Shown here: positions 8,209 through 63,201 of the stretch, piece after piece
How the letters are laid out: each line of letters starts with the position of its first letter
How positions within the stretch are numbered: the stretch's first letter is position 1
From: an uncultured Rickettsiales bacterium
GTDB lineage: Bacteria; Pseudomonadota; Alphaproteobacteria; Rs-D84
Assembly (NCBI GenBank): GCA_947176385.1
Contig: CAMWQN010000002.1
Location: 8,245 to 72,244 of the forward strand
Direction: 5' to 3'
DNA length: 64,000 nucleotides
The notes under the pieces: model-generated
What the model was told of the DNA's origin: nothing
The model's database searches: none
What the model saw: only the letters and a program-made list of their open reading frames with translations
Program-made: the position numbers and the translations under genes

Positions 8209-8242
8209 ATTAAGTATTCCTGATATAAATCCGTTGGTTTTA

Positions 8243-44200: not shown

Positions 44201-44906
44201 ACCCACGTGCAAATGGCGAATACCCATGCATCATCAACAGATAGTTTTGTTTGAATGCATTCGACATAAGTTCAAAATTCTGTTTGTAAATCGCTGTAGA
44301 ACTGCTGGGACCATATACTTCCAAGTTTGCAGAATACGATTGCGCTTCGTCTGCCGCGGTTGGCAATGCCGGTCCATAATTCAATGCAAACGCTTCTTTG
44401 CCAAGACCACTTTCACCACCACCGGAATTATCACCACCGATTGGGCGATTTCCTGCCGTCCCGGAATTATCGTTTCCATTGCCAGGGTCAAATACATCCG
44501 TTAATAAAAACAGTCCACCTATAACAACGGCGGCACCCGCCGCCGCCAATGTCAAACTCTGGGCGGATGATAGCCCACCAAACAAACCACCGCTGCCCTT
44601 GGGCTTATTACGACTGTTATAATTCTTTATTTGTCGGTCACAACGCGATGCATCTGCGCCATACATCTGTAAAATCTGGGCAGCACGCATATCATTATTC
44701 ATCAGTGCAGTACAAACCAGTGACAATCCTGTTGAATCGGTATAGTTAACATCTGCCCCGCTGTTTATCAGAATCTGAACCTGTTGAATATCAGCATTTT
44801 TTGCCGCAGACAACAATTGTGCTGCCACCATAAAATCATTAGATGCCGCATGCACCGACAGTGGCGCAAAAAATATCATAAACAACAATAATCTGATGTA
44901 TTTCAT
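41208..44906 (-). CDS. Large envelope protein: signal peptide, ankyrin repeat, glycine-zipper segment, large passenger-like region, C-terminal beta-rich domain
   Basis: The ANK-like segment is NADIQQVQILINSGADVNYTDSTGLSLVCTALMNNDMRAAQILQMYGAD. The glycine-zipper is GGLFGGLSSAQSLTLAAAGAAVVIGGLF. The last ~300 aa show an alternating beta-strand pattern. Confidence 0.7.
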   Translation of the reverse strand: MKYIRLLLFMIFFAPLSVHAASNDFMVAAQLLSAAKNADIQQVQILINSGADVNYTDSTGLSLVCTALMNNDMRAAQILQMYGADASRCDRQIKNYNSRNKPKGSGGLFGGLSSAQSLTLAAAGAAVVIGGLFLLTDVFDPGNGNDNSGTAGNRPIGGDNSGGGESGLGKEAFALNYGPALPTAADEAQSYSANLEVYGPSSSTAIYKQNFELMSNAFKQNYLLMMHGYSPFARGYLGMRTLRNQFSNAPIPLSGALGEYDIQGGRPTNVALVTANGVNAAMKPAGDYSAGKDSLDDVLLVWTTLNDSTSLNGASNDLLSSKYYNNLIKRGTDNNSLLDDSTYEDPNMVDLFDLSGSNTAVQNASASNDDNRLAKVLGGSLSGYPNADYVGFMPNGQMTIFRTGGGRGFKEVSDDARNGTFERASDTFATGDTITLPGLGTLTLTMDGNKFTAKAAGDNSPTYTGYIGIKNNFLYFDSNADGAVDVAYLQVVAGDTKQLVLNRELGNVDYHNYQALSLAATLNKDGNGRSRADVLANASVIAPLYSIDTKVIDDILAAETSDYRTEFAKFVDLYYDRDKGDGISGSNDLPSAYAATLFTAVGNSTTPLLVFSTGGYETDSNFTGRTREATFENAAPLVFKNLEHLFMSVVAVGITGTAGTSGTDSIAGFSPSGKYALSQWSDTNGTTTTEDDTYYRARVCGAAGRGSSSIDPWCFASAGVNAEMAVASAAGAAGVVKSAFDYLDNKQVFALLALTADGPYLGTFTNGVATTQDSLRSYLQSMYVLPNEYNVRWMQDGEDYLDVFKEVFGYGLINLERATKPGTKVYYYNGTDIVSSNGDAYWRAASNTMFRGSSAFRPSVDKISAPFFDVLESSDGSLRMPRVWQNEFAVSGDAGRRALYMGDVLGELKTRDDNVQRAQIGNFGFSLMRSPRAYNDNLSGLDALRFDYSRGNWNLNAGYQHYLTDGASRFDGMANPILSMASNSIVSDAIYNHGRWSFGGRVFSGEITDEGLLENDPTVTSQFNPARLGLFQGGQSHLAWHGDKFGFTTAVGHATESNTILGAQTGGLLNLGGGDTTYIDTVMRYAPWDKFALTARATFARTRADASGDFILGMSDVDSNAFGIGLDWGNISLSVARPLAVSHGAMKYASAQYDVVGSDDGNYDLVIRDSHVADVDLRPDVRELRFAGSVRHNFGAFTDGALGFIYRVNPNNCDDYGNESIFMMKLTHRLGI

Positions 44907-45033: not shown

Positions 45034-45738
45034 TTATTTACAATAACTTTGACGTGTAACGTATGTATTTACAGTCAATTTTGTTTCCGCTGTTGCGACA
45101 ACGCGACGTGTAACAGTCTTGGTTGTATCAGCAGAGTTTGCATTACCATTGTTGCTGATGGTAACTGTGTTATTATTACCATTGATAACAACATTTGCAT
45201 TCTGATCATCACCACAACCGTTTGCGTTTTGTACCGCTGGTGCAACTACTGGTACTTCTTTAACAACAATAACTGTATCAGGTTTTACCGGCGCCGGTAC
45301 ATTATTTGGACGTGTTGGACGTTGTGCAGGCTTTTTTGCTGGCTTTGGGTTAATGCATGGGCATTTTTCCTGACGTTGTGCGATTGTATCAACACGAGCA
45401 GTCAAACTGTCTGTACGCATTTCAACTGTATCAACACGCAATTTCAGACTGTCAATATCTGCACGATGTGCTTCAATGCTGTCCTCTGCCGCACTCATAC
45501 GAGTTTTCAAGTTGTTGATTTCACGCAAATTGCTTGAGATTCTACTTTCATGATTCTCAATCGATTCAATAATTTGATGTTGAACCATACCTAATGTATC
45601 AACTGTTGCTTCGACGCCGTCAACGCGTGCGCTAACCGCTTCGTTACCATTGCAACTTTTGACACTGGCAGCCAACGCAACAACTGCGATAACACCAGCT
45701 GTCAAACCAACATAATGTTTCTTTAACCAATCTTTCAT
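45034..45738 (-). CDS. Membrane-anchored coiled-coil protein with a Pro/Lys-rich linker
   Basis: Start placed at MKDWLKK with AAGGAA RBS; the ORF track begins at 45768. An N-terminal TM segment is followed by heptad-like repeats (RVDTVEMRTDSLTARVDTI). Confidence 0.65.
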   Translation of the reverse strand: MKDWLKKHYVGLTAGVIAVVALAASVKSCNGNEAVSARVDGVEATVDTLGMVQHQIIESIENHESRISSNLREINNLKTRMSAAEDSIEAHRADIDSLKLRVDTVEMRTDSLTARVDTIAQRQEKCPCINPKPAKKPAQRPTRPNNVPAPVKPDTVIVVKEVPVVAPAVQNANGCGDDQNANVVINGNNNTVTISNNGNANSADTTKTVTRRVVATAETKLTVNTYVTRQSYCK

Positions 45739-45892
45739 CTTTATTCCTTTTGTTTGATGACAAGACAAATATAGACAAACAAATGTGTTTTGTCAAGATA
45801 CAAATAATAAAAAATCTAATTTTTTGCCCCGCCCCCTTTTTTTCACTTTTCACGCCATGCGTTTTTTGATATAGTTCTTAGCAAGAGAGAAC

Positions 45893-46759
45893 ATGAAAAA
45901 ACATAACATACTTTTTATAGTCTGCAGTTTCTTGGCAATGTCAACCGCACATGGTGCCCAATCATGCTCGCGTGCGAACCTGACACGATGCCTGGATTCT
46001 GCCTGTGCAATTAACGTCAGTTCAAATCCTGCAGCACGTTGTCAGTATTGTGGTACGGACTCTGCCGGCACACCACCCACCAGTGGGATGCGTAATGTAT
46101 CTGCGGGCGCGTCTGCGAAATACAACCTGACGGACAAGGAATTAAAGAACGCGCCATCTGACCCCGGCAGTCGTTATGCTTGGGCAACTGCGCAATGTAT
46201 TAACAAGGTCACAGGCTGTACCACAGATGATGTATCTGAAGCATACGATTCATTGATTGAACAATCCTGCAAGGCAGCCGGCATCAGTGCACAAATGGCA
46301 ATATTACAAGCCGAAGCACGTAAAAAACCAACTAAAACAGCATGTACGACCAGCATCCGTTCATGCATTGTTGATGCAAAACGCTGTGGCGCAGATTGGC
46401 GCGCATGCCAGACAGATGCAGATTTTGATAAATTCTTTTCCACATGCGGTGTCGAAGCCACTGGTTGCGACACATATATGTCTGCGATACGTACAGAATT
46501 GTCTGGCGCACGTAACAGCGCAATCGCCAGTGCCGCAGCAGCCGTCCAAGGTATCGTAAAGAGTTATCAAAACGCACGTGAAACAAAATTGACCGCGGCA
46601 CGCACATCATGCCACGACAACGCCAGTCGCGATACATGTATTGAAAGTGTATGCGCCAATAATATGCGCAACAATTGCAGCCCAGATTTTCCGGGCGAAC
46701 GCGTAATGGCAACACAATTGTGCAAGTTCTATGAACTGGCATGCAACGTATTAAAATAG
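45893..46759 (+). CDS. Secreted cysteine-rich protein, small divergent member of the large Cys-rich family
   Basis: Signal peptide present. Cys-pair pattern is CSRANLTRCLDSAC.., SIRSCIVDAKRCGADWRAC and DTCIESVC. Confidence 0.75.
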   Translation: MKKHNILFIVCSFLAMSTAHGAQSCSRANLTRCLDSACAINVSSNPAARCQYCGTDSAGTPPTSGMRNVSAGASAKYNLTDKELKNAPSDPGSRYAWATAQCINKVTGCTTDDVSEAYDSLIEQSCKAAGISAQMAILQAEARKKPTKTACTTSIRSCIVDAKRCGADWRACQTDADFDKFFSTCGVEATGCDTYMSAIRTELSGARNSAIASAAAAVQGIVKSYQNARETKLTAARTSCHDNASRDTCIESVCANNMRNNCSPDFPGERVMATQLCKFYELACNVLK

Positions 46760-46785
46760 TACAACCGATAAAAAGCATACTTACA

Positions 46786-48255
46786 ATGACAAACAAAACA
46801 CATTTTAATTTTTACAACAAAATTGCCCATACAGCATTATGTGGCACAATGTTTGTTTTCATTGCATACGGCATTATGCCAGCATCGGCCGCGATTATTG
46901 ACCGAACAACACCTGCAGCGACAACCGCAACAACACCACGCCCGGCATCACAACGCATGCCGACAATGAGTGCAAAATTACCAACGGTCAGCCAGTCCAA
47001 CACCAGCACAAGCAACACAAATACCCAGACCAATAATAATACAAATAACGGAACAAACAATAATACCAGCAATAACAGCACCAATAATTCCGCTGCCACG
47101 ACGAACACAAATGATGCAGCAAACACAATTGCCAACGAAATAATAGAAGACAAAACATCCCAGTTTGATGCGATACTGGAATCGGCAACCACAGGCAGTA
47201 TCGACGCATCGACACAAAGTCTGGCAGATTTAATCCGTGCACAACGTGCGGCACTGGATGCGGCAGCTGCCGAAGAATTCTCTTCTAAAAACACAAAATC
47301 CGCAACCGCAGGACTCAGCACATGCGACAGCGGTCTGCGTGCATGCATGCAGGAAAAATGCGGTCCTAATTTTACGAAATGCAGCGGTGATGGCGACACG
47401 ATTTGGGGTGACAAAATGGACGCATGCCGTCGCGGTGTAACGTGCAGCGGTGAAGAATACAAATTATTTTCTATCGAAATCAAGGCTGACCGTGATCTGA
47501 ATGCTAAATTGGATTCATATCAGAAGATATTAGACTGCGGTAATTCATATAATTCATGTATTGAACAACAATGCGGCGCAACATTTAACAAATGCTTGGG
47601 CAAATCAGCGGGGGACGCCGCAATTGCAAAATGCGCATCAATTGCACGCGATTGCACACAGCAAGACAGTGGTTTAGCCGCCCGCGCAATGGAGGTTTTT
47701 GCGACCCTGCGCCAAGACGCAGAAAAACAAATCAAGAAAGACGAAGCACGCCTGTATGAACTGCGTGATACAATGCGTAGCCGCTGCCAATCATTGGGCG
47801 CATTATTTGACGAACGCAGCCTGGATTGCGTATTTACTGTTGAATTCTGGGCGGGTCAGCCAACAACATCGCTGTATGCATCTAAAAAAGCATACGCTGG
47901 TTCAACATTTGATTGCACGCAAACCTGGTTCGGTGTCGACATAACCACATTCAAAGAAAACGCATATCGTCTGACACGCGAACAAACATCTGCAACATCT
48001 GCATTATTGGGTTCTGGTGTCGGTATGGCGGTTGGCTCAATTACATCTGGCGCAATTGATCGCGCAATCGACAGACACAAGGCTGAACAAGCGGTCAAGA
48101 AAGCAGAAAAAGAAGACAAAGAAGCAGCCAAGGCACGCCAGGCTTCGAATTCAGCTGATAGCGACACATCCAGCCAACAGGAATGCACCACCGACAGTGA
48201 TTGTGGCGATGGCGAAACATGCAACAATCGCGTGTGTAAAAAAAAAATTAACTGA
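46786..48255 (+). CDS. Secreted cysteine-rich protein with Asn/Thr-rich linker and glycine-zipper; ends in an A10 tract
   Basis: Alternative start at 46741. Motifs are CDSGLRACMQEKCGPNFTKC, a glycine-zipper GSGVGMAVGSITSGA, and a C-terminal knot-like ECTTDSDCGDGETCNNRVCKKK. Confidence 0.75.
   Translation: MTNKTHFNFYNKIAHTALCGTMFVFIAYGIMPASAAIIDRTTPAATTATTPRPASQRMPTMSAKLPTVSQSNTSTSNTNTQTNNNTNNGTNNNTSNNSTNNSAATTNTNDAANTIANEIIEDKTSQFDAILESATTGSIDASTQSLADLIRAQRAALDAAAAEEFSSKNTKSATAGLSTCDSGLRACMQEKCGPNFTKCSGDGDTIWGDKMDACRRGVTCSGEEYKLFSIEIKADRDLNAKLDSYQKILDCGNSYNSCIEQQCGATFNKCLGKSAGDAAIAKCASIARDCTQQDSGLAARAMEVFATLRQDAEKQIKKDEARLYELRDTMRSRCQSLGALFDERSLDCVFTVEFWAGQPTTSLYASKKAYAGSTFDCTQTWFGVDITTFKENAYRLTREQTSATSALLGSGVGMAVGSITSGAIDRAIDRHKAEQAVKKAEKEDKEAAKARQASNSADSDTSSQQECTTDSDCGDGETCNNRVCKKKIN
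48238..48247 (+). repeat. Homopolymeric A10 tract at the junction of two ORFs
   Basis: Ten consecutive A residues. Loss of 1 A (or gain of 2) fuses ORF 46786-48255 to the frame of 48239-49045. Confidence 0.95.
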
Positions 48256-49045
48256 CACACATGGCGACACTAATCCCGCAAATGATACCGCTGTAATTCC
48301 ATCATTTAATTCATCCACGCCACAGACGCCGCAATGTACAACAAATTCAGATTGTGGTTCAGAACAAATTTGTGACAATGGTGTATGTAAAAATAAACCT
48401 GCTACAAATCCGCCAGCAACACAAAATGCGGGCAACACATGTTTCACCAAAAACACATCTGGCGCCAAACGCTACATTCCACCCGTCAATACAACAGGAC
48501 GCCGATATTTCTGGATTGGCGACTCACGCATGCAGGGAATGGCCAGGGATGAAATCGTCGGCAACAAACCAAACGAAGGTGTAATTGCCCAAGGCAGCAT
48601 GGGACATTCCTGGTTTCAAGACACTGCAATACCAATGCTCAATAACTGCCTTCATGATGGTGACGTCGTTATTTTAGCAATGGGCGCAAATGATATCGGA
48701 TCTACAAATGAATCTGCCACACGTGGTGCAAATAATTATATCGCAACATATGGCGATTTAATACGGAATCACCCCAACATAACGTTCCGCATTTTATCTG
48801 TTAATCCAGTACAAGAGCAACTTGCTAAACAAAGTGGCTATAAATTAACTAATACACTAATAACAAAATTTAATAACACATTACAAAGTGCTTTAAATCA
48901 ATACTGGATTGACACATACACACCAACCCTGCCAATGATAACAGCATTGACAGCAGGCGACGGTTTGCATTATGCAGGTGGAAAAAAAAGCAATAAAATC
49001 GAAAACAAAATCTATGATACAGTTATGTCATCAATAGGTGGATAA
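48239..49045 (+). CDS. SGNH/GDSL-type hydrolase domain ORF with no start of its own; continuation of the upstream ORF in the +1 frame
   Basis: It repeats the knot motif QCTTNSDCGSEQICDNGVCKNK. It then carries GDS (FWIGDSRMQG), GANDIG and DGLHY (DxxH) blocks. There is no in-frame ATG before the GDS block downstream of the upstream stop. Confidence 0.6.
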   Translation, partial: KKKLTDTHGDTNPANDTAVIPSFNSSTPQTPQCTTNSDCGSEQICDNGVCKNKPATNPPATQNAGNTCFTKNTSGAKRYIPPVNTTGRRYFWIGDSRMQGMARDEIVGNKPNEGVIAQGSMGHSWFQDTAIPMLNNCLHDGDVVILAMGANDIGSTNESATRGANNYIATYGDLIRNHPNITFRILSVNPVQEQLAKQSGYKLTNTLITKFNNTLQSALNQYWIDTYTPTLPMITALTAGDGLHYAGGKKSNKIENKIYDTVMSSIGG

Positions 49046-49143
49046 AATTTATCAATTTTGGTAAACAATCACCCCATTTTACATTGCCACGCCATGGACT
49101 TTTATGATATACTGATACATACAAATAGAAGGGACATTTTCGT

Positions 49144-52100
49144 ATGAAAAAATTATTATCAGTACTATTCGCAATAATTATCACCCTGCCCGCGTTGGCA
49201 ATGGATGTCAGTATCACTATTATTGATGAAAACAATGAACCATTGATTGGTGCCTCTGTCATCGTGGCAAACACACAAAATGGTGTAGTCACCGATACAG
49301 CGGGTCACGCAACTTTACGAAATATCCCAGACGACTCATCTATACGTATCAGCTATGTTGGATACCAAGAACAAACATTGCCAGCACAATCAACAATGTC
49401 TGTCAAAATGGAACCAACCACTCTGAATTTAGAAAGTGTAGTAGTAGTCGCATGTTCCCGTGCCAACGGTATAAAAACAACTAAGTGCGAAAACTGTGCC
49501 GATCCTGACAAATGTACCATCGACAGCTGCTCGGGTACATGTGTTGTACAGGAATGCCATGAACCATGCTACAAGAAAAAAGGTAACAAATGCGAAATGC
49601 AAAGTGTTACTGGTGGTACATTTACATTCATAAACAATCAATGCGGATTAACCTGTTTATCAATTGCAGGTTATGCCCAAGATCCAAAGAATCAATGGAA
49701 ATGTACACAAGATTGCACATCATCCATTACCGACCCAAATGTAAAGAAGGCACAATACAAAGGAAGCATAACACCAAACAACCTAAAATGCGAAATTATT
49801 GATTGCAAGGGTAAATATCATCCATCTGATGACAAACAAAGTTGCATCCCAGACCAAGGCGATTGCACCCCTGAACAATTGCAAGCCGTGCATGCCACCA
49901 CCGGATATTTAATCACCAGGACCAATAAATGTGTTCCAAAGGAATGTATCCAACCACAATACAGACCAGATGGCAAAGGCGATGACCGCGTATGCGTTGA
50001 CATGGTTGGCACAGCATGCAATGTAAAAAATGCGACCAGTGCAAAATTCGCAGTCCGTGATAATAAATTGATATGTGTTGTTGATACATGCGACACTGCC
50101 AATGGTTATGTAAAATCTGCTGATAGCTTATCATGCATCAAAGACTGCCTGAGTACTATCAAGGAAAAAGTTCCACTGGCAAGCGCTGCCGAATACGACA
50201 GCACTGGTAAGTGTGTAATTAAAAAATGCGATAAAAAGAATGGTAAAAAATACATCCCCAGTGATGATGGTCAAGATTGTGAAGAAACCGAACGTGATTG
50301 CAATAAACAAACCGACAGCCAAATCTGGCCGGAACATGCAACCGCCGCATTATACAAGAAATCAAAAACAGGTGGCACTGCAAAATGCGTTGCAACAGAT
50401 TGTGAACCAGGATACAAACCAGTCAAAGGACAATGTGTCAATCAGGTCGGACAACCATGTAAAGTATCACATGCCAAAGAAGCCAAATTTGAACTGCGTG
50501 ACAATAAATTGGTATGCGTAGTCGTATCATGCGACACCGCCAAGGGTTACACAAAAACCGCGGACGGTTTGGAATGTATCAAAGACTGTCTGTCAACAGC
50601 GAAAAACAAAGAACCCCTGGCAACCAAGGCTGAGTTCGACAGCAACGGTAAATGCATAATCAAAAAGTGTGATAAAAAGGATGGTAAAAAATACATCCCC
50701 AGTGATGACGGTCAAAAATGTGAAGAAACCGAACGTGACTGCAATAAACAAACCGACAGCAACATATGGCCGGAACACGCAACCGCCGCAGCATACAAAA
50801 AATCAAAAACGGGTGGTGCTGCAAAATGTGTCGCAACAGAATGTGAAGACGGCTATGACGTTGAGGGTGGTAAATGCACATCTGTAAATGATTCAGACTG
50901 TGATAAAAAACCTGAAAATTCAAAAAAATCACATCGTTACTATGACGTCAGCCAGCAACAAACATTGTGCATCATCGACGAATGCAAGGATGGATATAAA
51001 ATCAGCAACGACATGCTGTCATGCATACTGGAATCTGCATTAAGCGAAGAAGATGCAAAAAAACGTATGGATGAATTAAAAGAAAACGCCCTGAAAATGA
51101 AAGAAAAAGAACAGTCTATTGAAAATAAACTGTTGGGCGCCGCTGGTATGGCAACGGTTGGTATTGGCGGAATGAATATCGCATCTGCCCTGTCTGAACA
51201 AAGCGCTGACCGCAAAGCAGAAGATGATATGAAAGCATATCTGGCAACATTCCGCTGTGACTATGGTCAGGGTCGCAATATCCTGGGTGGTGAAACAAAT
51301 ATTCAATTACCAGGTGCCAGCGAATTGATGCAATACACAACCGAATATAAACAATTGGCATTAAACCTGAAATCTGACAAAGCCGCATTGGGAATGATGC
51401 CGGGCATTGAATCAGAAACCGTATTTGATTCTGCAACAACTGGTCTTTATGATGATGTTGGTATCGGCACACAGAAAGGTGCATTTACATCATTGTCACG
51501 TGCCCTCTTGGATGAAAATGGCGCTGACGCCGCCGAATGGCAGGCAATGAAAGACGCCACCGCAAAAAAATTAAAGACCGGTGTAATTGTTGCTGGTGCG
51601 GGCGCATTGGGAACATTGGCGGGCAACCTGGCTATCAATCATGGCAATGGTGACCAATCCGCTAATATAATGAACCAATACGAAGGCTTACAGGAAGATA
51701 TTCCAGACATCACACTGCCACGCATACCATGTTCTAATTTCCCAGATACAACTGGTGTTGGTTATGTACCAAACTGTGAATGCAAAACCCCAAATTCATA
51801 CTTTGATGAACAGACTCGCAAATGTGAACAATGCGGTACAAATGAACACGTCGAAAACAAACAATGCGTATGCAACGACGGCTTCCACCGTGATGCAAAC
51901 AGTGGCAACTGCATTGCAAATCAACCGGAACAAACCTGTCAGAATTTGCCAGCCGGCAGTGGCGCAACAGGTTCAGGCAATTTCCCAAATTGTGATTGCA
52001 AAGATCAAAATGCAACATTTGATAAACAATCATTGAAATGCAAATGCAAGGACGGATTTTCAAATCCAAATGGGGGTCAATGCCTGCAAATATGCGCAGG

Positions 52101-52854
52101 GTTACCTGGGGTCGATAACAGTCGGGCATCCAATTATAACGTGCCGCAGTGCCCATGTGAATACGATGGCGCAAAATTTGACCCGTCACAAAAAGCCTGC
52201 CTTTGCCCACAAGGTCAAACACCAGCCATTGAAAACGGTCAGAAAAAATGTATCACACCGTTAACAGGTACACAATGTGATACAATCCCTGGTGCAACAG
52301 GCACAATTGTTCCGAACTGCACATGCACTGACCCCAACAAACAATTTATCAAGAAACAAGGAAAATATGGCTGTCACTGCAAATCTGGTATGCGTGAAGA
52401 TGAATCTGGCAACTGCGTCAGTGGCAGTGATCCTGTATTCTCAGGTAACTTTAGCGCGAATGAAACATTTGACCTAGGCAAATCCGAAATCAGTGACAAC
52501 AGATGCACACAAATCATAAATAAAATTAAGACAGATTCTAGATATGATGCAAACATATCTGGCACATTATGTATCAGTGCAATCGGTCATACTGACACAA
52601 AATACTTCAAAAACACCCCTAAAAAAGAAGCAATCAATAAACAAAAGAATCAAGAACTGTCAAAAGACCGCGCTCAGGCAATGCATGATTGCATCAACAG
52701 AAATATCCGCAGTTTGTTCCCAAGAGCGACAGTCACCAGTCCAAATGTCGTCGGCAAGGGTTGGCAAGAATGCGTGGTACAAGACTTAGATAAAGATACC
52801 CCATCATGTCGCAGGGTAGAAGTAAAAATCCAACTGAACAGTTGCCATAACTAA
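49144..52854 (+). CDS. 1236-aa mosaic envelope protein: CarboxypepD_reg-like N-domain, Cys-rich repeats, coiled coil, glycine zippers, EGF/furin-like repeats, OmpA-like C-domain
   Basis: The N-terminal region is IIDENNEPLIGASVIVANTQNGVVTDTAGHATLRNIP..IRISYVGYQEQTL. The C-terminal region is AIGHTD..N.ELSKDRAQAM...CRRVEVKI. Confidence 0.8.
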   Translation: MKKLLSVLFAIIITLPALAMDVSITIIDENNEPLIGASVIVANTQNGVVTDTAGHATLRNIPDDSSIRISYVGYQEQTLPAQSTMSVKMEPTTLNLESVVVVACSRANGIKTTKCENCADPDKCTIDSCSGTCVVQECHEPCYKKKGNKCEMQSVTGGTFTFINNQCGLTCLSIAGYAQDPKNQWKCTQDCTSSITDPNVKKAQYKGSITPNNLKCEIIDCKGKYHPSDDKQSCIPDQGDCTPEQLQAVHATTGYLITRTNKCVPKECIQPQYRPDGKGDDRVCVDMVGTACNVKNATSAKFAVRDNKLICVVDTCDTANGYVKSADSLSCIKDCLSTIKEKVPLASAAEYDSTGKCVIKKCDKKNGKKYIPSDDGQDCEETERDCNKQTDSQIWPEHATAALYKKSKTGGTAKCVATDCEPGYKPVKGQCVNQVGQPCKVSHAKEAKFELRDNKLVCVVVSCDTAKGYTKTADGLECIKDCLSTAKNKEPLATKAEFDSNGKCIIKKCDKKDGKKYIPSDDGQKCEETERDCNKQTDSNIWPEHATAAAYKKSKTGGAAKCVATECEDGYDVEGGKCTSVNDSDCDKKPENSKKSHRYYDVSQQQTLCIIDECKDGYKISNDMLSCILESALSEEDAKKRMDELKENALKMKEKEQSIENKLLGAAGMATVGIGGMNIASALSEQSADRKAEDDMKAYLATFRCDYGQGRNILGGETNIQLPGASELMQYTTEYKQLALNLKSDKAALGMMPGIESETVFDSATTGLYDDVGIGTQKGAFTSLSRALLDENGADAAEWQAMKDATAKKLKTGVIVAGAGALGTLAGNLAINHGNGDQSANIMNQYEGLQEDIPDITLPRIPCSNFPDTTGVGYVPNCECKTPNSYFDEQTRKCEQCGTNEHVENKQCVCNDGFHRDANSGNCIANQPEQTCQNLPAGSGATGSGNFPNCDCKDQNATFDKQSLKCKCKDGFSNPNGGQCLQICAGLPGVDNSRASNYNVPQCPCEYDGAKFDPSQKACLCPQGQTPAIENGQKKCITPLTGTQCDTIPGATGTIVPNCTCTDPNKQFIKKQGKYGCHCKSGMREDESGNCVSGSDPVFSGNFSANETFDLGKSEISDNRCTQIINKIKTDSRYDANISGTLCISAIGHTDTKYFKNTPKKEAINKQKNQELSKDRAQAMHDCINRNIRSLFPRATVTSPNVVGKGWQECVVQDLDKDTPSCRRVEVKIQLNSCHN
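49993..50874 (+). repeat. Two tandem 441-bp (147-aa) intragenic repeats
   Basis: Unit 1 starts at CVDMVGTACNV (49993) and unit 2 at CVNQVGQPCKV (50434). Long stretches are near-identical at DNA level, for example around KKYIPSDDGQ.CEETERDCNKQTDS. Confidence 0.9.
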
Positions 52855-52860
52855 AGTAAA

Positions 52861-52890
52861 AAACCAAACGCCCACATGGGCGTTTGGTTT
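52861..52890 (+). terminator. Intrinsic terminator
   Basis: AAACCAAACGCCCA-catg-GGGCGTTTGGTTTT. Confidence 0.7.
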
Positions 52891-52914
52891 TATCCCCCTG
52901 GTCCGCCCCCCTTT

Positions 52915-52943
52915 GTCATTGCGAGTGCAGCGCAACAATCCAG
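52915..52943. repeat. Fragment of a 'cattgcgag...caatcc' palindromic-element type repeat
   Basis: GTCATTGCGAGTGCAGCGCAACAATCCAG. A related copy lies at 63087-63125. Confidence 0.4.
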
Positions 52944-53215
52944 TTAATAATAATGTACAGCACATATTTAAGTTCCGCCCCTAGGACGGGCTGATCTTTT
53001 ATCATATTGCGTTTTTTTACCCCCCAGCCACCCACAAGCATATTTACAAATCGACATATTGCTTTTATTAACATGGATCCGGGTGTCAGGCACCGAGATG
53101 AATACGAGTATACGAGAATTTATTTAAACAACTAGGAGGATACGCACAGACCGCAGTACCGAGCAATAAAAAAGCAATGTTCACAGATTAGTTATTTTTC
53201 GATTTACTTCTCTCT

Positions 53216-53248
53216 GGTGTCACCCAGTGGCTTGACCACGTGGTCCAG
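53216..53248. repeat. Hairpin repeat fragment (GGTGTCACCCAGTGGCTTGACCACGTGGTCCAG)
   Basis: Imperfect hairpin CCAGTGG-cttga-CCACGTGG. It resembles hairpin repeats I recall from Rickettsiales-type genomes. Confidence 0.35.
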
Positions 53249-53413
53249 ATTAATCAATCCCATGCAGTACTGAACCCTAGTTCACTGTACTGCGGATATT
53301 ATTATTCGCACAACAGATATATTATATATCTGCTACCCTGCCGAATACTTAACGACAAAAAAATTCAGGTCGCAGGACGACCTGAATTGGACACATTTTA
53401 TTAAATATTTTTA

Positions 53414-55639
53414 TTACTGTGCGGTTGTATCAGAATTATCCTTGTTAGAATCATCGGATGCGTCTTGTGGTACACACGCCCCATATGATTTTGCAACTGG
53501 ATAGTTTTCAATACATACGCTGCCCGATGGGATACATGCCGCATGAATCAATGTTATTGCTGGCGCACCCGCTGGTTTGTAATTTATCTGGGCAGATTTG
53601 CACTGTTCCAAATCTGTTATTTCAGCGCATGCACGACGCCATGAATTACAATCAACAACCATCGCCGTTGGTGCGACATTTTCCGGCAGACGCAGGTTCC
53701 ATTTTACATAGAAATCACGCAGACTGCCAATTGACATCGATTTGCCATATCCAATCTGATCCAAACCATCACCCAGGCGGCAATTGATATTATTCTTTTC
53801 AACAAATGCCGTTATCGCTGTTGCCAAACCACCGGTACCCGCACCAATCGCAGCACCGGTCAATGTTGTCTTTACACGATTGTTTTTATCACCCTTGGAA
53901 ATAACATCGCCAACACCTGATAACGCCTGTTTTAAGCGATTAACATCAGAATCAATACGGTCAACAGACCAACAATCCGGACCACATTCCTGCTTGGTGC
54001 ATCCATTCAGACAGTAAATATCATCACCAAAGACAAATGCCTGATTTATCGGTTTAAAGAAACAACGCAAATCTGTACCATCTGCTGTCAGACCAAGTTT
54101 GTTCAGTTGATTGGTCGCGATTTGCTTTCCTTTTTCTAACAGTGCATTGTTCAATTCATTCATACATTCTTCTGCATTGCCAGTATTTTCACAAATAGCC
54201 ACAGCATCAATATCTGTTACAGCAACACCACGACTATCAACCAGTTTCAGATTTTCTCTGCACGTCGCCCAATCTGCTGCTTCAGTTATATCGATATTAT
54301 TATCAGAAACTTCGCATTTCACAGTGACAGATAAACTAACATCTGATATTGCGCCACCTGTACCCTTACATCTGTTCAATGCAGTCTGCAACTGATTATA
54401 TTTGTCATACAAATTGACAATTTCACGACACTGGGATTCTGTCATATTATTCGCAGATGCTTCCATTGTTGCATCACGATTGACCAAAAATTCATTCATC
54501 ACACCGACATTACGTTTTTCTTTTAATAATTTCATCAAACGTTCACGATGATCAGAATTACCGCAATCAAAATCACGGTCGCCATGTCCTGCCAATGCAC
54601 CAATACCGGCACCGACCAATGTTCCACCGCCAATACCAACCACTGCAACAGTGTTTGTATTTTTATACAGTGAAAATCCAAACAGGTCTTTGTTACATGT
54701 AAATGTACTGCCTGCGCGTTCCCATGCCTCTGCCAATCTGTCGTCACCGACAGCACCAAACAACCAACTGTTTTTAATTGGTGTATCTTTGTTATACGCC
54801 GCAACACGGATATGACATTCGGCGGTTGTTGCATCCCAACGTGCATAGTGCCCACGTCCACCATCAACGCCATCATTGCCATTGTTTAATGTTGCGCCCT
54901 GTGGATTCTTCTTGATAATATTGGCACCACCCTGCCCGTTATATGCACCAACACGGTTGTTATATTCGTATGTTGTAACACCGGAATTTGCAACCGCATC
55001 AAATGATTTGCCATAGGTATTCTTGTCCAACAACCAGCATGTATTTTCTGCCTGACGTGGTGTTAATCCTGTCTTGCGCAGGACAAAACTGTAATATTCT
55101 GGTTGCACCTTGCGTGCGTTAAAGTCAATCCATACATCAGCGGATGAATGATATATATTTTCGCAATCGCGGCGAACTTCGGCAATGCAGCGTTCAACCT
55201 GGGCAGAACACAATCCCATACCATTTATAATGGAATTACGCAGTTCTTCATTGAACATATCGTTTATGCCATTTGGTAATGCGCCATTATTAACACATGC
55301 AAATACGTCACGCATACAGTTATCAACCGTATATTCAGAATTCTTGACACCACCATCCGGGCATTCTGGGGTCGGTTCATCCGGTGTATCTGGGGTATCC
55401 GGTGTATTCGGCACAGTTGGGGTCGGCTGTGTTGGCAAATCAACCGTCATATTACCTGTCGTATTGATTGGCAATGTCGGCATTGACGGCATACGTTGCG
55501 TACCCGACAACCCTGCACGGTTCATACGATTAACATTATATGCAGCGCGTCCAGATTCTGCGGCACCTGCCACCCCAAATACACACATAGCCGCAATACT
55601 CGCCACGGGTAAACCAAACATTTTCAGCCGATTTTGCAT
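53414..55639 (-). CDS. Large secreted cysteine-rich protein, divergent family member (741 aa)
   Basis: Signal peptide and a Pro/Thr linker. Cys pairs are NCMRDVFAC and LCSAQVERCIAEVRRDC. There are two glycine-zipper segments and a Cys-rich C-terminus. Confidence 0.8.
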   Translation of the reverse strand: MQNRLKMFGLPVASIAAMCVFGVAGAAESGRAAYNVNRMNRAGLSGTQRMPSMPTLPINTTGNMTVDLPTQPTPTVPNTPDTPDTPDEPTPECPDGGVKNSEYTVDNCMRDVFACVNNGALPNGINDMFNEELRNSIINGMGLCSAQVERCIAEVRRDCENIYHSSADVWIDFNARKVQPEYYSFVLRKTGLTPRQAENTCWLLDKNTYGKSFDAVANSGVTTYEYNNRVGAYNGQGGANIIKKNPQGATLNNGNDGVDGGRGHYARWDATTAECHIRVAAYNKDTPIKNSWLFGAVGDDRLAEAWERAGSTFTCNKDLFGFSLYKNTNTVAVVGIGGGTLVGAGIGALAGHGDRDFDCGNSDHRERLMKLLKEKRNVGVMNEFLVNRDATMEASANNMTESQCREIVNLYDKYNQLQTALNRCKGTGGAISDVSLSVTVKCEVSDNNIDITEAADWATCRENLKLVDSRGVAVTDIDAVAICENTGNAEECMNELNNALLEKGKQIATNQLNKLGLTADGTDLRCFFKPINQAFVFGDDIYCLNGCTKQECGPDCWSVDRIDSDVNRLKQALSGVGDVISKGDKNNRVKTTLTGAAIGAGTGGLATAITAFVEKNNINCRLGDGLDQIGYGKSMSIGSLRDFYVKWNLRLPENVAPTAMVVDCNSWRRACAEITDLEQCKSAQINYKPAGAPAITLIHAACIPSGSVCIENYPVAKSYGACVPQDASDDSNKDNSDTTAQ

Positions 55640-55752
55640 AAAAAATACTCCCTTTCTATCTGTTTAATTATACTATAAACAGACACTAAAAAAAAGTACT
55701 TTTTTGCCCAATAAAATATTGACAAATATTATAAATAGTCTATATTTGTAAC

Positions 55753-56829
55753 ATGAATAAAATCATAGAAATTTTGAAAAGCAATAAATATGTCATTATG
55801 TGGACCGTCGCATATATCGCGATTGCATGGGCAATATTGCTGTTTATGTTTAATTTTAATATATTTGTCGGACACCAGTGGCAATTATTAATGCACGCTG
55901 AAATCAAGGGCTTTGCAGGATTTGTCTTTGGAATATTGATGCTGGCAGCATTGCCAATGTACATTGCAACAACCGCGGTTATTATACGAACCAAGCAACC
56001 ATTGATAACTGTAAATATCAAACCTGTTATTAAAATATTCACAGCAATTATTCCGCAACCCGTCCCGGCAGCAATCGCTGAAAAAATCACAAATACAGAT
56101 TATGCGCCACAAATTACAACCGAAACAGAAAATGGCACACCTGTGCAATCTGATGTCGAATTTCCAAACGCCATGCCCGAAGAACTGCGTGGTGCATTTA
56201 TTCGCGCCCGCCAACACATTGACCAATTCGCAACATCAGCATTTAATGCCACACCGAACGCTGAACCCATCTCAAACATTCCAGTATCAGATGCAACACC
56301 GGCATCAGACGTTGCCGAATTACCATTACCAACCGATTTTAATTTTGATTCGCCCGTCGATTCTGATTTTGCGCCCAGCATTGCAATGCCAACATTTACA
56401 GATATAAGTTTTGACGATGACGATAACGTTAACGACAACAAATCAGATGCCCCAACCAACGACACAACCGCTGTCCCAACAAGCACAAACAAAGACAATA
56501 ATGACAATGTTGTAAACTATCTGACAGAACACGGCTACGCCCCACGTCGTGACGGTGACATGATTATTGCAAATAATATTATTATCGCGACGCACGATGA
56601 CCCAGCCTTTTGGATCGCAGACCCTGAAACCTGGTTCGCCGCTGGCAAACAAAAACCATCCCCAATAAATCAATTGATTAAAGAATCTGCCAAGAATGGA
56701 TTGCGCCCTGTTTTATATTTGGCACAAACAAACATTCTGGAACTGGACACATGTCGTGCAGCCTGGGACACGATGGGTGTCACCAGCATCACAGATTTAA
56801 GCGAACTGCCACTGGCATCTGACAAATAA
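55753..56829 (+). CDS. Membrane protein of unknown function with an acidic low-complexity linker
   Basis: There are 2-3 N-terminal TM segments. The TTGACA-N16-TATATT promoter ends 6 nt before the ATG, so the mRNA may be leaderless. Confidence 0.6.
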   Translation: MNKIIEILKSNKYVIMWTVAYIAIAWAILLFMFNFNIFVGHQWQLLMHAEIKGFAGFVFGILMLAALPMYIATTAVIIRTKQPLITVNIKPVIKIFTAIIPQPVPAAIAEKITNTDYAPQITTETENGTPVQSDVEFPNAMPEELRGAFIRARQHIDQFATSAFNATPNAEPISNIPVSDATPASDVAELPLPTDFNFDSPVDSDFAPSIAMPTFTDISFDDDDNVNDNKSDAPTNDTTAVPTSTNKDNNDNVVNYLTEHGYAPRRDGDMIIANNIIIATHDDPAFWIADPETWFAAGKQKPSPINQLIKESAKNGLRPVLYLAQTNILELDTCRAAWDTMGVTSITDLSELPLASDK

Positions 56830-56859
56830 AAAATCCCGCCGTTTTGGCGGGATTGTTAC

Positions 56860-59847
56860 TTAGAACTGAGTATCCGAACATGTTTCCACAGGATCAGCCC
56901 ATGATTTGCAATACTTTTTACCAAACAAAGGATTTCCTTTCTTGGTGCATTGCTGGCTGCGAACACATTTATGACAATTCAATGTTTCCCATTCAAATGT
57001 CGATGTGATTACTTCCTTGTAATTCCATTGATTCAACTGTTTAGAACCAGTCAATTCACGCTGTTCAGATGCATCTGCACCATTTGATTTTCCATCTTTT
57101 GATGAACTGACCATACCGGCAATTCCTGCCCCAACCAAGGCCGCACCACCTGCTGTTAATCCCAAACTTAACCCACCGGTAAATGGAACAGCAACAACAC
57201 CAACAGCCGCAGCAACACCACCAACTACAGTCGAAAGAGCCCCACCGACTGCACCAAAGAACTGACTGCCGAATCCTTTTGGTGGGTTTGGTGACTTAGG
57301 CAAAGAAGATATTTCCGCGAAAGACACACATGCAACACGGGCAAATTCACGGCGTGCATCCATTGCGTTTTCACCCTGGATTTTTGCCATACGTTCACCC
57401 ATTGTGGCATAATCCTGTAACATCTTTTGATTCAATTCATCAAACTTCTTATAATAATTTTCCTTGGCAACCTTTAACGCCTGGGTTGCGATAAGCATAC
57501 GCATCTGTTTGGTCAGCCCCGGGAATCGTGCCGCATCCGCAGATTTTTCGCCAATTCTGCTGCGGGTGTCATTACCACTGCGTTTCATACCCTGAACTTC
57601 GCGTCCTGTCATACAGAATTGAACCGTTGTATCTGATTCTATAATATTGATAGCGGTATCAATATTTTTCTGTAACAAAGCCAGTTCCGCACGTACGCGT
57701 TCTTTTTGCGCATCGGTTGCATCCTTTTGATTTGCACGATCCAGATATTCATCAACAGAAACCAGACGACCGTCATCATCAAAGTCAACACTTTCCCAAT
57801 ATATTGTACCATCCAAGACCCCAGCAAATGGTGTAATTGGTCCCAATCCCGCCGATGTAGAACCTTCGACACGTCCTAATTCAGAATCTTGGATTTGTGC
57901 TATATCAGTACGGCAACCTGAATACGATATATCCATTGTATTATTATCTGACTTATATTCACAAATCTTATATTCCAGGGAACGTGCGCCAATATTTTCA
58001 TCAACGGCAAGCCCATTACAAGATTCAGTATCGCCACAAACTTTAATCATAGCCTCGTTTGCGGCATTTTGGCATTGAGTCAAGAAAGTATTATCGATAT
58101 TCAACATAATACCCTGAACCATATCAGCCAGTTTGTCATATACTTCATTACTTTTGACTTGTGTATTACCATACAGTTCGACACAGCCTGTTAACTTTTC
58201 ATATGGGCACATACGAATAATAGAGTCTGTATCCAAACCGACGCACTGCGAGAAGTCGGATCCGCATCGATCATCGGATGTCAAGCAAGCTTTAACTTCT
58301 TTGGTACAAGAATCGACACGCATAGAAGCAAGACGTGCGACAACAAACTGCCAGATTTGAGAACTTTCAGCATCTTTTTTAGAATTTGTGCTGATACCGC
58401 ATGCATTCAATGGAATCTTACAAACATTTAACATTGTCAACGGACGTGACAAGCACATGTCATAAGAACCATCTGGGTCATTTGGATCCATGGTATCTTT
58501 ACAAGCCTTTTGGAAGCAGGCAGAGATATTACCAACGCATTCTTGTCTTGCTTTGTCTTCTGCAATCAATTCAGCGGATTTAATTTGCGGTGCGATTTCT
58601 CTCAGGAAAGTATCCCAAACTTTATCTTTTACTGCAACACAGGATTCAGTAATACCCATACACAGTGGCTTTTTACCTTCCAATGTGTCATAAGTTGATG
58701 CAAAAATTTCTATCGTTGTAGCACTGCCCTTAATCGCATACATCTTTGTTGCGTTCTTGGTGCTTTTGGTTGTGTTTGTGCTATCCATTGCAGATACAGA
58801 TGCACAGTTTGAAAAATCTTCACCACAACCACCGGTAGTAATCATACATTTTTTAAATTCTGTTGTACACTGACCCAAGTCATACTTGTTTGCAATATGT
58901 AATTGTTCCAATGCAGCCTCTCTTAACGCCTGTTCTGCTGCATATAATTTTTGTGCACTGGCATTCTTTTGCTGTTTCAGACTGTTTTCATATGCCGTAC
59001 AATCTGAACGGATTTTTTGTGAATACATCATCTGCAACATTGACAGATCGCTGCCACATTCAGGCATTTGTTGTGTGCAAAGTTGTGCGGCTGCACGATG
59101 TAATGCATCACCTTCTTTGCCATCAACCATGCTTTGCATGCTGTTTGTTTCACCAAATATATCGTCTGTATCAAAATCAACCACAGTATTCCAGGCAGAC
59201 AAATCCAATGCTTTACGTGCACTTTTCTTCTTTACCTGTTCTTCTTTCTTTATTACAGACTGCGCGGCAGCATTTGCATTGGCAATTGCCTGGTCAGCAT
59301 CGCTGCCCATTTCAATTTTTTCAACCCCAAATGTTGCCATTTGATAACTTTGTTGATCCAATTTTTCAATTTCTGCCAATATATCGTCTAATTCTGCGCT
59401 TCTATCACTGCAAATACAGCGTCCACCACTTGTATTGTCCAGCATACAGAAAGAATCCATGCAACCTTCATATTTCTGGCGACACTCTTCGCTGACAACA
59501 GTATTTTGTGTTGCTGCTGCAACCTTGGTACCAGAATTAATAACCTTCTGAGTGGTTGCTGCACGTGCGCCAACTGCTGCCGGCTGTGCTGCTGGGGCTG
59601 CACCACGTGTTGCCACTGCGCGTCCTGTGGTCGCTGCCCGCGCTGCTGCCGCTGGTGCGGCTGCATTTGTTGCGGGGGCACTATTTCGTACTGCCGCACG
59701 GGCAGACGTTGCACTTCGTGCCGCTGATGTCCCAGCTGATGACGAGGCTGTCGTTGCCGTGCCACCGCGACGTTGTCCCGCCGTTGCAGCATTTGCGTTT
59801 GTACCCAAAGCCGCTAAAACCATAATAAAAAAGGCAAATAATCTCAT
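56860..59847 (-). CDS. Large secreted cysteine-rich coiled-coil protein, core family member (995 aa)
   Basis: Signal peptide and an Ala/Arg/Thr-rich linker. Motifs are CRQKYEGCMDSFC, conserved Cys pairs collinear with 5746-8208, a long glycine zipper, and a C-terminal NCHKC..C..C tail. Confidence 0.85.
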   Translation of the reverse strand: MRLFAFFIMVLAALGTNANAATAGQRRGGTATTASSSAGTSAARSATSARAAVRNSAPATNAAAPAAAARAATTGRAVATRGAAPAAQPAAVGARAATTQKVINSGTKVAAATQNTVVSEECRQKYEGCMDSFCMLDNTSGGRCICSDRSAELDDILAEIEKLDQQSYQMATFGVEKIEMGSDADQAIANANAAAQSVIKKEEQVKKKSARKALDLSAWNTVVDFDTDDIFGETNSMQSMVDGKEGDALHRAAAQLCTQQMPECGSDLSMLQMMYSQKIRSDCTAYENSLKQQKNASAQKLYAAEQALREAALEQLHIANKYDLGQCTTEFKKCMITTGGCGEDFSNCASVSAMDSTNTTKSTKNATKMYAIKGSATTIEIFASTYDTLEGKKPLCMGITESCVAVKDKVWDTFLREIAPQIKSAELIAEDKARQECVGNISACFQKACKDTMDPNDPDGSYDMCLSRPLTMLNVCKIPLNACGISTNSKKDAESSQIWQFVVARLASMRVDSCTKEVKACLTSDDRCGSDFSQCVGLDTDSIIRMCPYEKLTGCVELYGNTQVKSNEVYDKLADMVQGIMLNIDNTFLTQCQNAANEAMIKVCGDTESCNGLAVDENIGARSLEYKICEYKSDNNTMDISYSGCRTDIAQIQDSELGRVEGSTSAGLGPITPFAGVLDGTIYWESVDFDDDGRLVSVDEYLDRANQKDATDAQKERVRAELALLQKNIDTAINIIESDTTVQFCMTGREVQGMKRSGNDTRSRIGEKSADAARFPGLTKQMRMLIATQALKVAKENYYKKFDELNQKMLQDYATMGERMAKIQGENAMDARREFARVACVSFAEISSLPKSPNPPKGFGSQFFGAVGGALSTVVGGVAAAVGVVAVPFTGGLSLGLTAGGAALVGAGIAGMVSSSKDGKSNGADASEQRELTGSKQLNQWNYKEVITSTFEWETLNCHKCVRSQQCTKKGNPLFGKKYCKSWADPVETCSDTQF

Positions 59848-59989: not shown

Positions 59990-60009
59990 ATCCCGCCGAA
60001 TGGCGGGAT
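59990..60009 (-). terminator. Intrinsic terminator after rplQ
   Basis: The minus strand reads ATCCCGCC-attc-GGCGGGAT followed by TTTTTTT. Confidence 0.7.
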
Positions 60010-63011: not shown

Positions 63012-63201
63012 GATATTTCTCTTGTTTTTTATTGACATACAAGATAGCAATATTTCATATTTTGTCAAATGATTTATAAAAACACAGGATTGCCACGTCA
63101 TGGCTTACACCATTCCTCGCAATGATAATGGGGATACACTCTGGACACTGAACTCTATAAAAAAATCCCCCAACTGGGGGATTTTTTATTGCACGCATAG
63201 A

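Follow-up and report, generated by a model that had tools for sequence, protein, structure and literature searches.

Cluster 2 encodes a conserved set of probable envelope proteins

The 64,000 bp of DNA analyzed here (contig CAMWQN010000002.1, bp 8,245-72,244; hereafter the window) derive from an uncultured alphaproteobacterium of the gut, Candidatus Enterousia (order Rs-D84), whose genome is smaller than 1 Mb. They include two clusters of genes for large cysteine-rich proteins, the second of which (cluster 2, bp 45034-59847 of the window) is described in this report. Its eight genes are designated A to H in order of position (Table 1), and a further gene beside A encodes a protein of 1232 amino acids (aa). 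We rate at slightly better than even the chance that cluster 2 specifies a lineage-specific set of Candidatus Enterousia envelope proteins that reinforce or decorate the envelope. An envelope location of the products is well supported by their predicted properties. We infer that they may be assembled into one built structure, and the membrane and function assigned to it below are proposed in the same sense.

Enterousia are rod-shaped, fermentative bacteria with genomes below 1 Mb that lack the tricarboxylic acid cycle, respiration and standard transporters (PMC12306168). They are predicted to be obligate symbionts or parasites that obtain metabolites from other cells, and their membrane proteins are unexplained (PMC12306168). 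They are widespread in human and animal guts, and their mode of interaction with other cells is likewise unexplained (PMC12306168). The first-pass annotation of the window, made from the sequence without database searches, had presented cluster 2 as a dedicated envelope-structure system. The present analysis supports a co-conserved, exported set of proteins with invariant cysteines and a predicted OmpA-like tether; a single transcription unit, the SGNH esterase as a conserved component and assembly into one structure are not borne out.

Conservation and order of the genes

A profile of H was scanned against one genome per GTDB species, giving 274 matching stretches from which 77 loci (given below by handles such as L001) were kept, and the window proteins were compared with these loci by tblastn and by blastp at the level of open reading frames (ORFs). 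A lack of joint conservation in relatives had been named as what would refute the envelope-system reading, and this refutation fails: dozens of species within the lineage retain the set, for the most part in the same order. G and F occur together in 51 loci and alone in 2; they are always adjacent and divergent, separated by a median of 131 nt and a maximum of 235 nt. Likewise, 33 loci contain both B and C, at a median distance of 10 nt (2 more have C without B), and the 1232-aa protein is syntenic with B-C in approximately 25 loci. Where at least 3.5 kb of sequence is available downstream of H (61 loci), G-F directly follows H in 36 cases; rplQ precedes H (rpoA-rplQ-H) in 39 of the 63 loci with enough upstream sequence. 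Orthologues are 39-69% identical for H, 43-60% for F, 31-44% for G and 43-60% for B; the range for rpoA is 86-99%.

Many loci, among them L001, L002, L015, L025, L050, L056, L065 and L077, have the order rpoA-rplQ-H-G-F-E-C-B-(A)-1232 aa. Elsewhere, [H-G-F], [E] and [C-B-(A)-1232 aa] change order as blocks but remain together, and in six loci (L004, L017, L019, L024, L030 and L046) cluster 1 genes adjoin H. Gene order is kept across species in large part, and the locus behaves as the modules H-G-F, B-C-(A)-1232 aa and E, which rearrange from genome to genome. A is fast-evolving (62% identity to the nearest strain) and was detected in few loci only.

Cluster 2 does not appear to be transcribed as one unit: terminator-like hairpins follow E, F and H, and strong promoter-like sites lie before A, E and G (both as consensus matches). 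H probably has its own promoter, since a terminator-like hairpin separates it from rplQ. Only B-C-D looks like an operon, and the other genes look like separate transcription units. The 470 nt between the E and F terminators (bp 52892-53361) contain no convincing ORF and have no Rfam match, and Rfam and tandem-repeat scans of cluster 2 as a whole found nothing. A database protein in which B and C are fused (P0009, 824 aa) reads through a TAG codon; this stop is present in L078, the locus of a related strain (bp 5715-5725), and the fusion is a gene-calling artefact.

Export and cysteine content

An ORF check recovered all eight ORFs described earlier, each at the same coordinates and on the same strand. 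All products apart from G begin with a signal peptide of the AXA type or with an N-terminal anchor. The cleavage motifs of B, C, E, F and H are of the AHG/ASA/ALA/AGA/ANA type with no Cys at position +1, and these predicted signals show the five proteins to be exported. The same five proteins contain 3.8-7.3% Cys, whereas housekeeping proteins encoded in the window have 0-2%. When cluster 1 and further members are added, including a 664-aa protein with 58 Cys and a small family of three mutually related proteins (hhalign 95-96%), Cys-rich secreted proteins make up approximately 36% of the window. This is an extraordinary investment for a genome of less than 1 Mb, and it makes the Cys-rich proteins, which have no Pfam family or structural relative, the foremost candidates for an envelope or contact machinery that would define how the organism lives.

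None of the members could be assigned to known, unrelated families. Scans of nine proteins (those of cluster 2 and the 1232-aa neighbour) against Pfam, NCBIfam, PHROGs and PADLOC returned only CarboxypepD_reg, weak SGNH, ankyrin and generic coiled-coil matches. The core families have no Pfam or NCBIfam model and no PDB relative: profile searches of the PDB with H, F, G and B found nothing, and AlphaFold2 (AF2) models of H and F compared to the PDB and BFVD with Foldseek gave no match with an E-value below 0.3. In the public annotation (locus tags K2M34_03125-03160) the products are hypothetical except for E, which is named "carboxypeptidase-like regulatory domain-containing".

The H family and its cysteine modules

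The collinearity of H and the 820-aa protein of cluster 1, noticed earlier from the sequence, is confirmed: the two are 32% identical over 916 aa (E-value: 1e-119; hhalign 100%), and both of the peptides cited for the comparison are present. H is clearly homologous to the 722-aa and 824-aa proteins of cluster 1 as well. Among themselves the H paralogues are about 30% identical, but each can be matched to orthologues of its own at 55-68% identity, so the duplications must be old, with all copies retained. This pattern resembles a set of distinct subunits more than an antigen family with fast turnover. A search with the H family profile retrieved 988 representatives at 50% clustering, 333 of them with an E-value of 1e-30 or lower.

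The predicted layout of H begins with a signal peptide and a disordered Ala/Arg/Thr linker. A largely helical region rich in heptad-spaced Cys follows (residues 120-846), then a glycine-rich hydrophobic hairpin (863-915), which is the least conserved part of the protein, and finally a beta domain with five Cys (932-995) that ends with an invariant Phe. The three paralogues share with H the great length, the mostly helical make-up and the heptad-spaced Cys. Its AF2 model consists mostly of long helices plus a small C-terminal beta domain (mean predicted local distance difference test score, pLDDT, 60.7). A C-x6-C-x6-C-x6-C module is common to H (327-348 and 514-535) and B (151-172), and a related module, C-x6-C-x4-C-x6-C, is found in C (195-214 and 266-285). 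Such heptad spacing would fit two antiparallel helices stapled by two disulfides. The designation of the cluster 2 proteins as members of one Cys-rich family is appropriate for H and the cluster 1 proteins and loose for B and C (hhalign 46-79% against H). It does not extend to F, which by hhalign shares only about 45 residues with C, just before the glycine zipper, and for which homology to H is not demonstrable.

Almost all of the cysteines in B, C, E, F and H are invariant. In B, the mature protein keeps all 20 of its 20 Cys in each of 17 species (45-59% identical); H and its paralogues share 32 invariant Cys among 77 invariant columns; and in F, 22 Cys are invariant or nearly so. A gene for a membrane-anchored DsbA-like oxidoreductase with a CPYC active site lies directly after RecO, 1.4 kb past cluster 1, and its product is the likely source of the disulfides and partner of all of the Cys-rich proteins. 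As a genome of less than 1 Mb retains DsbA beside dozens of conserved Cys, the putative disulfides are considered to be structural.

The giant protein E

E contains, in order, a signal peptide, a CarboxypepD_reg domain (residues 22-104; Pfam 52.5 bits; PDB 8aa4, E-value: 1e-10), Cys-rich modules, two glycine-rich hydrophobic segments, four EGF-like Cys repeats and an OmpA-like domain (approximately residues 1103-1229, bp 52450-52830). The Cys-rich part includes an internal duplication of a unit of about 150 residues, the two copies of which (bp 50011-50475 and 50476-50940) are 76% identical. Orthologues range from approximately 570 to 1499 aa, so E is a genuinely variable mosaic, but most of them end in the OmpA-like domain.

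An OmpA-like C-terminus had been proposed for E from inspection of the sequence. As a single sequence it matches OmpA weakly (Pfam 17.9 bits, cut-off 27.2; TssL-OmpA E-value: 4e-4). A profile built from 14 orthologues matches the OmpA C-terminal domains of PDB 4rha/4erh with an E-value of 2e-19, along with 80 OmpA-family chains. In the OmpA family, the conserved Asp of the GHTD motif and Arg of the LSxxRA motif contact the peptide stem of peptidoglycan. Both residues are among the positions (GHTD, N, LS and RA) that are invariant in the alignment of E orthologue C-termini. These comparisons confirm the C-terminus of E as an OmpA-like (PF00691), predicted peptidoglycan-binding domain. As the window also encodes an ordinary OmpA-family protein, the domain in E would be an additional tether and not the sole one.

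Glycine zippers, variable regions and protein G

Glycine-zipper segments had been reported in five of the proteins, and glycine-rich hydrophobic segments are indeed present in C, E, F, H and the 1232-aa neighbour (Table 1). Repeated GxxxG motifs occur in hydrophobic helices at residues 424-432 of C, 335-351 and 595-603 of F and 892-900 of H, and the E segments are glycine-rich. C consists of a signal peptide, an Asn/Thr-rich linker, a conserved Cys-rich core (residues 141-460) that contains the two C-x6-C-x4-C-x6-C modules, the glycine zipper and a hypervariable tail ending in a 4-Cys knot and KKK. C orthologues are 352-790 aa in length, with everything beyond the zipper hypervariable and further Cys-rich pieces in many of the tails. 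In F, an N-domain (81-360) and a C-domain (581-720) are highly conserved and the middle (361-580, bp 53900-54559) is variable and indel-rich, retaining six invariant Cys. The two F zippers (bp 54587-54652 and 53804-53872) are located exactly at the boundaries of this variable middle. Because Cys and exported-type modules are found on both sides of the zippers, helices that lie in the outer membrane, or that do not cross a membrane, are favoured over inner-membrane spans.

G has a different layout: two N-terminal transmembrane helices are followed by an acidic Pro-rich linker, in which the short motifs P-ELR-AF-RAR, LPLPTDFD and PVF-DINFDD are conserved, and by a conserved C-terminal domain of about 110 aa without conserved Cys. 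Positive charges on both flanks of the helices suggest an N-in, C-in topology, and G is likely the sole product that faces the cytoplasm. No PDB or Pfam relative of its C-terminal domain was found, and family-wide Pfam scans of G and F orthologues gave no consistent match apart from sub-threshold glycine zippers.

The putative SGNH hydrolase and the A10 tract

D had been described as a start-less ORF. This was found to be incorrect, as an in-frame ATG, from which NCBI predicts a 278-aa product, is present at bp 48209 (46 nt inside C); translated from this ATG, the product has no signal peptide. The SGNH assignment is sub-threshold in Pfam (PF13472 27.0 bits, cut-off 32.9; PF00657 20 bits, cut-off 23.6). 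PF13472 is precomputed for all three homologues, and catalytic blocks I (GDS), III (GxND) and V (DxxH) are intact (FWIGDSR, AMGANDIG and GDGLHY in P0423; kept in P0424 and P0425). D also contains a 4-Cys knot, CTTNSDCGSEQICDNGVCK, that is paralogous to the knot ending C, CTTDSDCGDGETCNNRVCK. The domain has three representatives in 5.8 billion proteins; besides D itself, these are one from a related strain that is 79% identical and one that is 65% identical, the latter with its own signal peptide and a Pro/Gln linker. In a comparison of the two loci, D is 77% identical in protein to its counterpart in the related strain, represented by L078. Because of the 4-Cys knot and the signal peptide of the 65%-identical homologue, the D domain is expected to be exported. 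An SGNH esterase was earlier counted as part of the set, but none of the 77 loci encodes it, and the 3 proteins are the only ones known. Judged by this distribution, it is a strain-level add-on and not a defining part of the locus.

As noted previously, C ends in an A10 tract (bp 48238-48247, plus strand), which is the longest homopolymer in the window. The tract encodes the KKK of the C-terminus (...VCKKKIN*), and the stop codon (bp 48253-48255) lies 5 nt past it. With one A fewer or a +1 shift at the tract, the C frame reads ...VCKKKLTDTHGD... straight into D, while a -1 shift leads to an immediate stop. The one relative with this arrangement, L078, has the same A10 (bp 7312-7321), the same stop and the same overlapping frames in a locus that is 82-86% identical in DNA. 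A sequencing error at A10 is unlikely given the same layout in this second, diverged assembly. Slippage as a general feature of C orthologues is ruled out, as other tails differ. In L029, for example, an A12 run closes the C orthologue (bp 1117-1140; …EKKKMKK*), but the next ORF starts from an ATG of its own, indicating that poly-A ends are common in C tails without implying recoding.

Three modes of D expression can be considered. We give an even chance to programmed slippage, which would yield C and a minor C-SGNH fusion; independent translation of D is a weaker candidate, and phase variation at the DNA level is unlikely. Slippage of this type is known from tssM1 of Citrobacter rodentium, where an A11 tract before the stop gives two length variants by RNA polymerase slippage with approximately 20% frameshifting (PMC4256274; reviewed in PMC5009743). 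In both cases a poly-A run is found just before the stop, and the missing C-terminal domain lies directly downstream in the +1 frame and is kept in a relative (PMC4256274). The present tract also has the features looked for in slippage of this type, namely a run of at least 9 A, a frame-0 stop just past it and a domain in the shifted frame. The two differ in that the tract here is A10, the putative fusion would require one A fewer or two more, and the SGNH domain is accessory rather than essential.

A proposed envelope assembly and its alternatives

In the model that we favour, the Cys form intramolecular, and possibly intermolecular, disulfides that would staple helical hairpins. The glycine-zipper helices would insert into a membrane, as do those of SlyB, YfgH and YiaD. 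The outer membrane is more likely, since the zippers have conserved Cys and exported-type modules on either side and the hypervariable parts of C and F are found past them. E would link the assembly to the cell wall, and G, as the cytoplasm-facing partner, would anchor or regulate F and H. Together the proteins would reinforce or decorate the envelope, with the variable regions presented outside, and in this strain and one relative an SGNH esterase may extend C through slippage on the conserved A10.

Several observations weigh against this model. First, the cluster 2 proteins have no clear lipobox, unlike SlyB and YiaD, and their scores with the Pfam Gly-zipper and Rick_17kDa_Anti models are sub-threshold (at best 19.6 bits, compared to 28.9). 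Second, AF2 confidence is low (pLDDT 60.7 for H and 53.1 for F), so folds and disulfide pairings are tentative. Third, the region between the E zippers is conserved and has one Cys, which fits an inner-membrane topology. Finally, separate transcription units and rearranging modules mean that physical assembly is not implied.

The most serious alternative, though one that we hold only tentatively, overlaps with this model and differs in having interaction instead of reinforcement as the function. The proteins would be surface adhesins or contact organs that attach this metabolically dependent bacterium to a partner cell (a microbe, a protist or the host epithelium), with the variable parts of C, F and E binding the partner or being immune-exposed. 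The predicted uptake of metabolites from other cells by a lineage without standard transporters (PMC12306168) is in keeping with such a role, as are the hypervariable C tails and variable F middle, the range of E lengths with its recent internal duplication, and the share of the window devoted to Cys-rich secreted proteins. H and the conserved domains of B and F, however, are strongly conserved as stable single-copy orthologues, library scans detected no known adhesin domain, and surface exposure is putative. A bolder version, which we think improbable, is that H, F, B, C and E (with G on the cytoplasmic side) would constitute a previously unseen disulfide-stapled, zipper-inserted, peptidoglycan-tethered envelope layer or attachment organelle, unique to Rs-D84, for docking to partner cells and drawing metabolites from them. 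If true, it would correspond, within the Alphaproteobacteria, to the contact structures that have been suggested for Patescibacteria.

It is also unlikely, in our estimation, that cluster 2 encodes a periplasmic scaffold anchored in the inner membrane, with the zippers as inner-membrane spans, the Cys-rich and OmpA-like domains filling the periplasm and linking the inner membrane to peptidoglycan in the manner of MotB or TssL, and nothing exposed at the surface. The E C-terminus does match OmpA domains of the TssL and MotB/ZorB type, a single Cys between the E hydrophobic segments is what a cytoplasmic loop would show, and G is an inner-membrane protein. This topology would nevertheless put the middle of F in the cytoplasm despite its six invariant Cys and hypervariability. 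The C tail would be there too, although it contains 4-Cys knots and an SGNH domain for which the sole independent homologue bears a signal peptide. Furthermore, the 1232-aa neighbour has, in our reading, a beta-barrel-like C-terminus after its glycine zipper.

Still less probable is a conserved neighbourhood without shared function, in which unrelated exported proteins have stayed together since streamlined genomes rearrange little. Separate transcription units, the likewise syntenic flanking genes rpoA and rplQ, and the lack of homology of F, G and A to H would be expected in that case. On the other hand, the modules move as blocks yet end beside each other or beside cluster 1 (L003, L009, L017, L037 and L042), the G-F and B-C pairings are almost absolute, and the proteins have a common design (low-complexity linker, invariant Cys and glycine zipper). 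Very improbable, finally, is a membrane-damaging role, in which H-family proteins would act like ClyA/Nhe, ApoL or SseC as pore formers or translocators and insert the hydrophobic hairpin into the membrane of a target. The matches to ApoL (23.2 bits, cut-off 25.9), SseC (16 bits, cut-off 30) and NheB (E-value: 0.003) are below cut-offs, compositional and confined to the Gly/Ala-rich hydrophobic stretch of the hairpin, and the Foldseek rows for SmhA and MakA are very weak (probabilities 0.01-0.02). The hairpin is moreover the least conserved part of H, and no secretion system or immunity gene is nearby.

The locus offers several handles for further work: conserved modules, a predicted peptidoglycan tether, a nearby DsbA, candidate exposed variable regions and a testable recoding site. 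The H family in particular is large and wholly uncharacterised, with approximately 1000 representatives at 50% identity awaiting a structure.

Organism and genomic setting

The bacterium is predicted from its genes to be a diderm with a peptidoglycan wall. The window encodes two canonical autotransporters, from which it follows that the organism has an outer membrane, in addition to an SLT lytic transglycosylase, a SurA-like chaperone and the second OmpA protein. Also encoded are MscS, ClpXP and RecO, as well as housekeeping functions (PGK, TIM, GrpE, NrdR, RNase HII and a CcrM-like methylase). The guanine plus cytosine (GC) content of the window is even (0.37-0.47) and, together with the housekeeping neighbours, this indicates that cluster 2 is native chromosome and not an island. 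A phage, defence or mobile island was ruled out based on the uniform GC content, the housekeeping neighbours and the absence of relevant PHROGs and PADLOC matches.

Loci related to cluster 2 originate from the guts of humans, ruminants, horses and birds, and one is part of a circular genome of 958,618 bp. Two contigs with a cluster 2 locus (L016 and L038; protein P0158) are filed in Bacteroides fragilis and Muribaculaceae bins and are probably mis-binned. A choloylglycine (bile-salt) hydrolase family protein is encoded at bp 33540-34694 (plus strand; 213 bits) in this genome of less than 1 Mb and hints at adaptation to the vertebrate gut.

The 1232-aa neighbour begins with a signal peptide and ankyrin repeats, the only feature that library scans detect in it; exported ankyrin repeats are unusual. 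Its C-terminus reads like a degenerate subtilase (e.g. GYGLINLERA) followed by a beta-barrel. Near the other end of the window, two tandem paralogues (bp 62382-63101 and 63202-63849, both minus strand) are 64% identical and have no assigned function. Relatives of this pair and of a 114-aa secreted protein (bp 61947-62291) recur upstream of rpoA in many loci. ARAGORN called a tRNA-Ser (anticodon ACT) at bp 14617-14695 (minus strand) inside the RecO ORF; the call is without Rfam support and is probably a false positive.

Table 1. Positions of cluster 2 genes and related features in the window
Feature	Position (bp, unless residues are given)	Strand	Description
A	45034-45738 (45768 with longer call)	-	N-terminal membrane anchor, coiled coil ~45-135, Pro-rich linker, Asn-rich tail
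B	45893-46759	+	288-aa exported protein (predicted)
C	46786-48255 (46741 from upstream ATG)	+	489 aa (504 aa)
D	48209-49045	+	278 aa, SGNH/GDSL hydrolase domain
E	49144-52854	+	1236-aa mosaic protein
F	53414-55639	-	741 aa, signal peptide, Pro/Thr linker
G	55753-56829	+	358-aa membrane protein
H	56860-59847	-	995-aa core family member
1232-aa neighbour	41208-44906	-	Signal peptide, ankyrin repeats (24-92), glycine-rich hydrophobic segment (111-142), ~1000 further residues
Glycine-rich hydrophobic segment, C	residues 421-439		
Glycine-rich hydrophobic segments, E	residues ~652-680, 813-832		
Glycine-rich hydrophobic segments, F	residues 330-351, 590-612		
Glycine-rich hydrophobic segment, H	residues 863-915 (57103-57261)		55-residue hairpin
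Glycine-rich hydrophobic segment, 1232-aa neighbour	residues 111-142		
Terminator-like hairpin	52860-52891		14-bp stem, just after E stop
Terminator-like hairpin	53362-53388		After F
Terminator-like hairpin	56832-56854		After H
Terminator-like hairpin	59990-60009	-	Between rplQ and H
Cluster 1	5746-13328		Three H paralogues (820, 722, 824 aa)
DsbA-like oxidoreductase	14754-15707	+	Membrane-anchored, CPYC active site; Pfam DSBA 75 bits
Cys-rich secreted protein	34788-36782	-	664 aa, 58 Cys (8.7%)
Small Cys-rich secreted family	1004-1699	+	224-231 aa, 7.4-8.5% Cys
Small Cys-rich secreted family	21885-22580	-	As above
Small Cys-rich secreted family	40216-40890	-	As above
Autotransporter	23096-25858	-	Pfam Autotransporter beta-domain, 67 bits
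Autotransporter	28386-31040	-	Pfam Autotransporter beta-domain, 103 bits
Second, ordinary OmpA-family protein	2578-3690	+	54.9 bits

Comparison with known systems

The nearest functional analogy to cluster 2 is the chlamydial outer membrane complex (OmcA, OmcB and MOMP), in which Cys-rich envelope proteins and a DsbA/DsbB-type oxidase produce disulfides that rigidify the envelope (PMC6752827). Both are exported Cys-rich envelope sets of a small-genome, host-dependent diderm. The cluster 2 proteins have no Chlam_OMP3 or Chlam_OMP6 match (Pfam, E-values up to 0.01), however, and are mainly helical with heptad-spaced Cys and glycine zippers. Enterousia also differs in having peptidoglycan genes and an OmpA-type tether, and cross-linking is putative here.

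With respect to architecture, the E. coli outer-membrane lipoproteins SlyB, YfgH, OsmB and YiaD have GxxxG-rich helices or hairpins in the membrane, and YiaD combines a zipper with an OmpA C-terminal domain (bioRxiv 10.64898/2025.12.22.696046). YiaD is the nearest analogy for the C-terminal half of E, and F has a faint YiaD-family match. Unlike these proteins, those of cluster 2 are 10-20 times larger, contain large Cys-rich domains and have AXA-type signal peptides in place of a lipobox, and their Pfam zipper scores are sub-threshold. At the other end of E, the CarboxypepD_reg domain resembles the periplasmic N-terminal extension of SusC among the SusC/RagA TonB-dependent transporters, but E lacks a plug or 22-strand barrel, its match covers positions 4-89 of a 981-position model and no TonB_dep_Rec match was found. 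Disulfide-stapled helix pairs, as proposed here, are a feature of the Helicobacter Hcp proteins (Sel1-like repeats), which are secreted proteins of a host-adapted bacterium; B, C, F and H have no Sel1 or TPR match in Pfam, and spacing and size differ.

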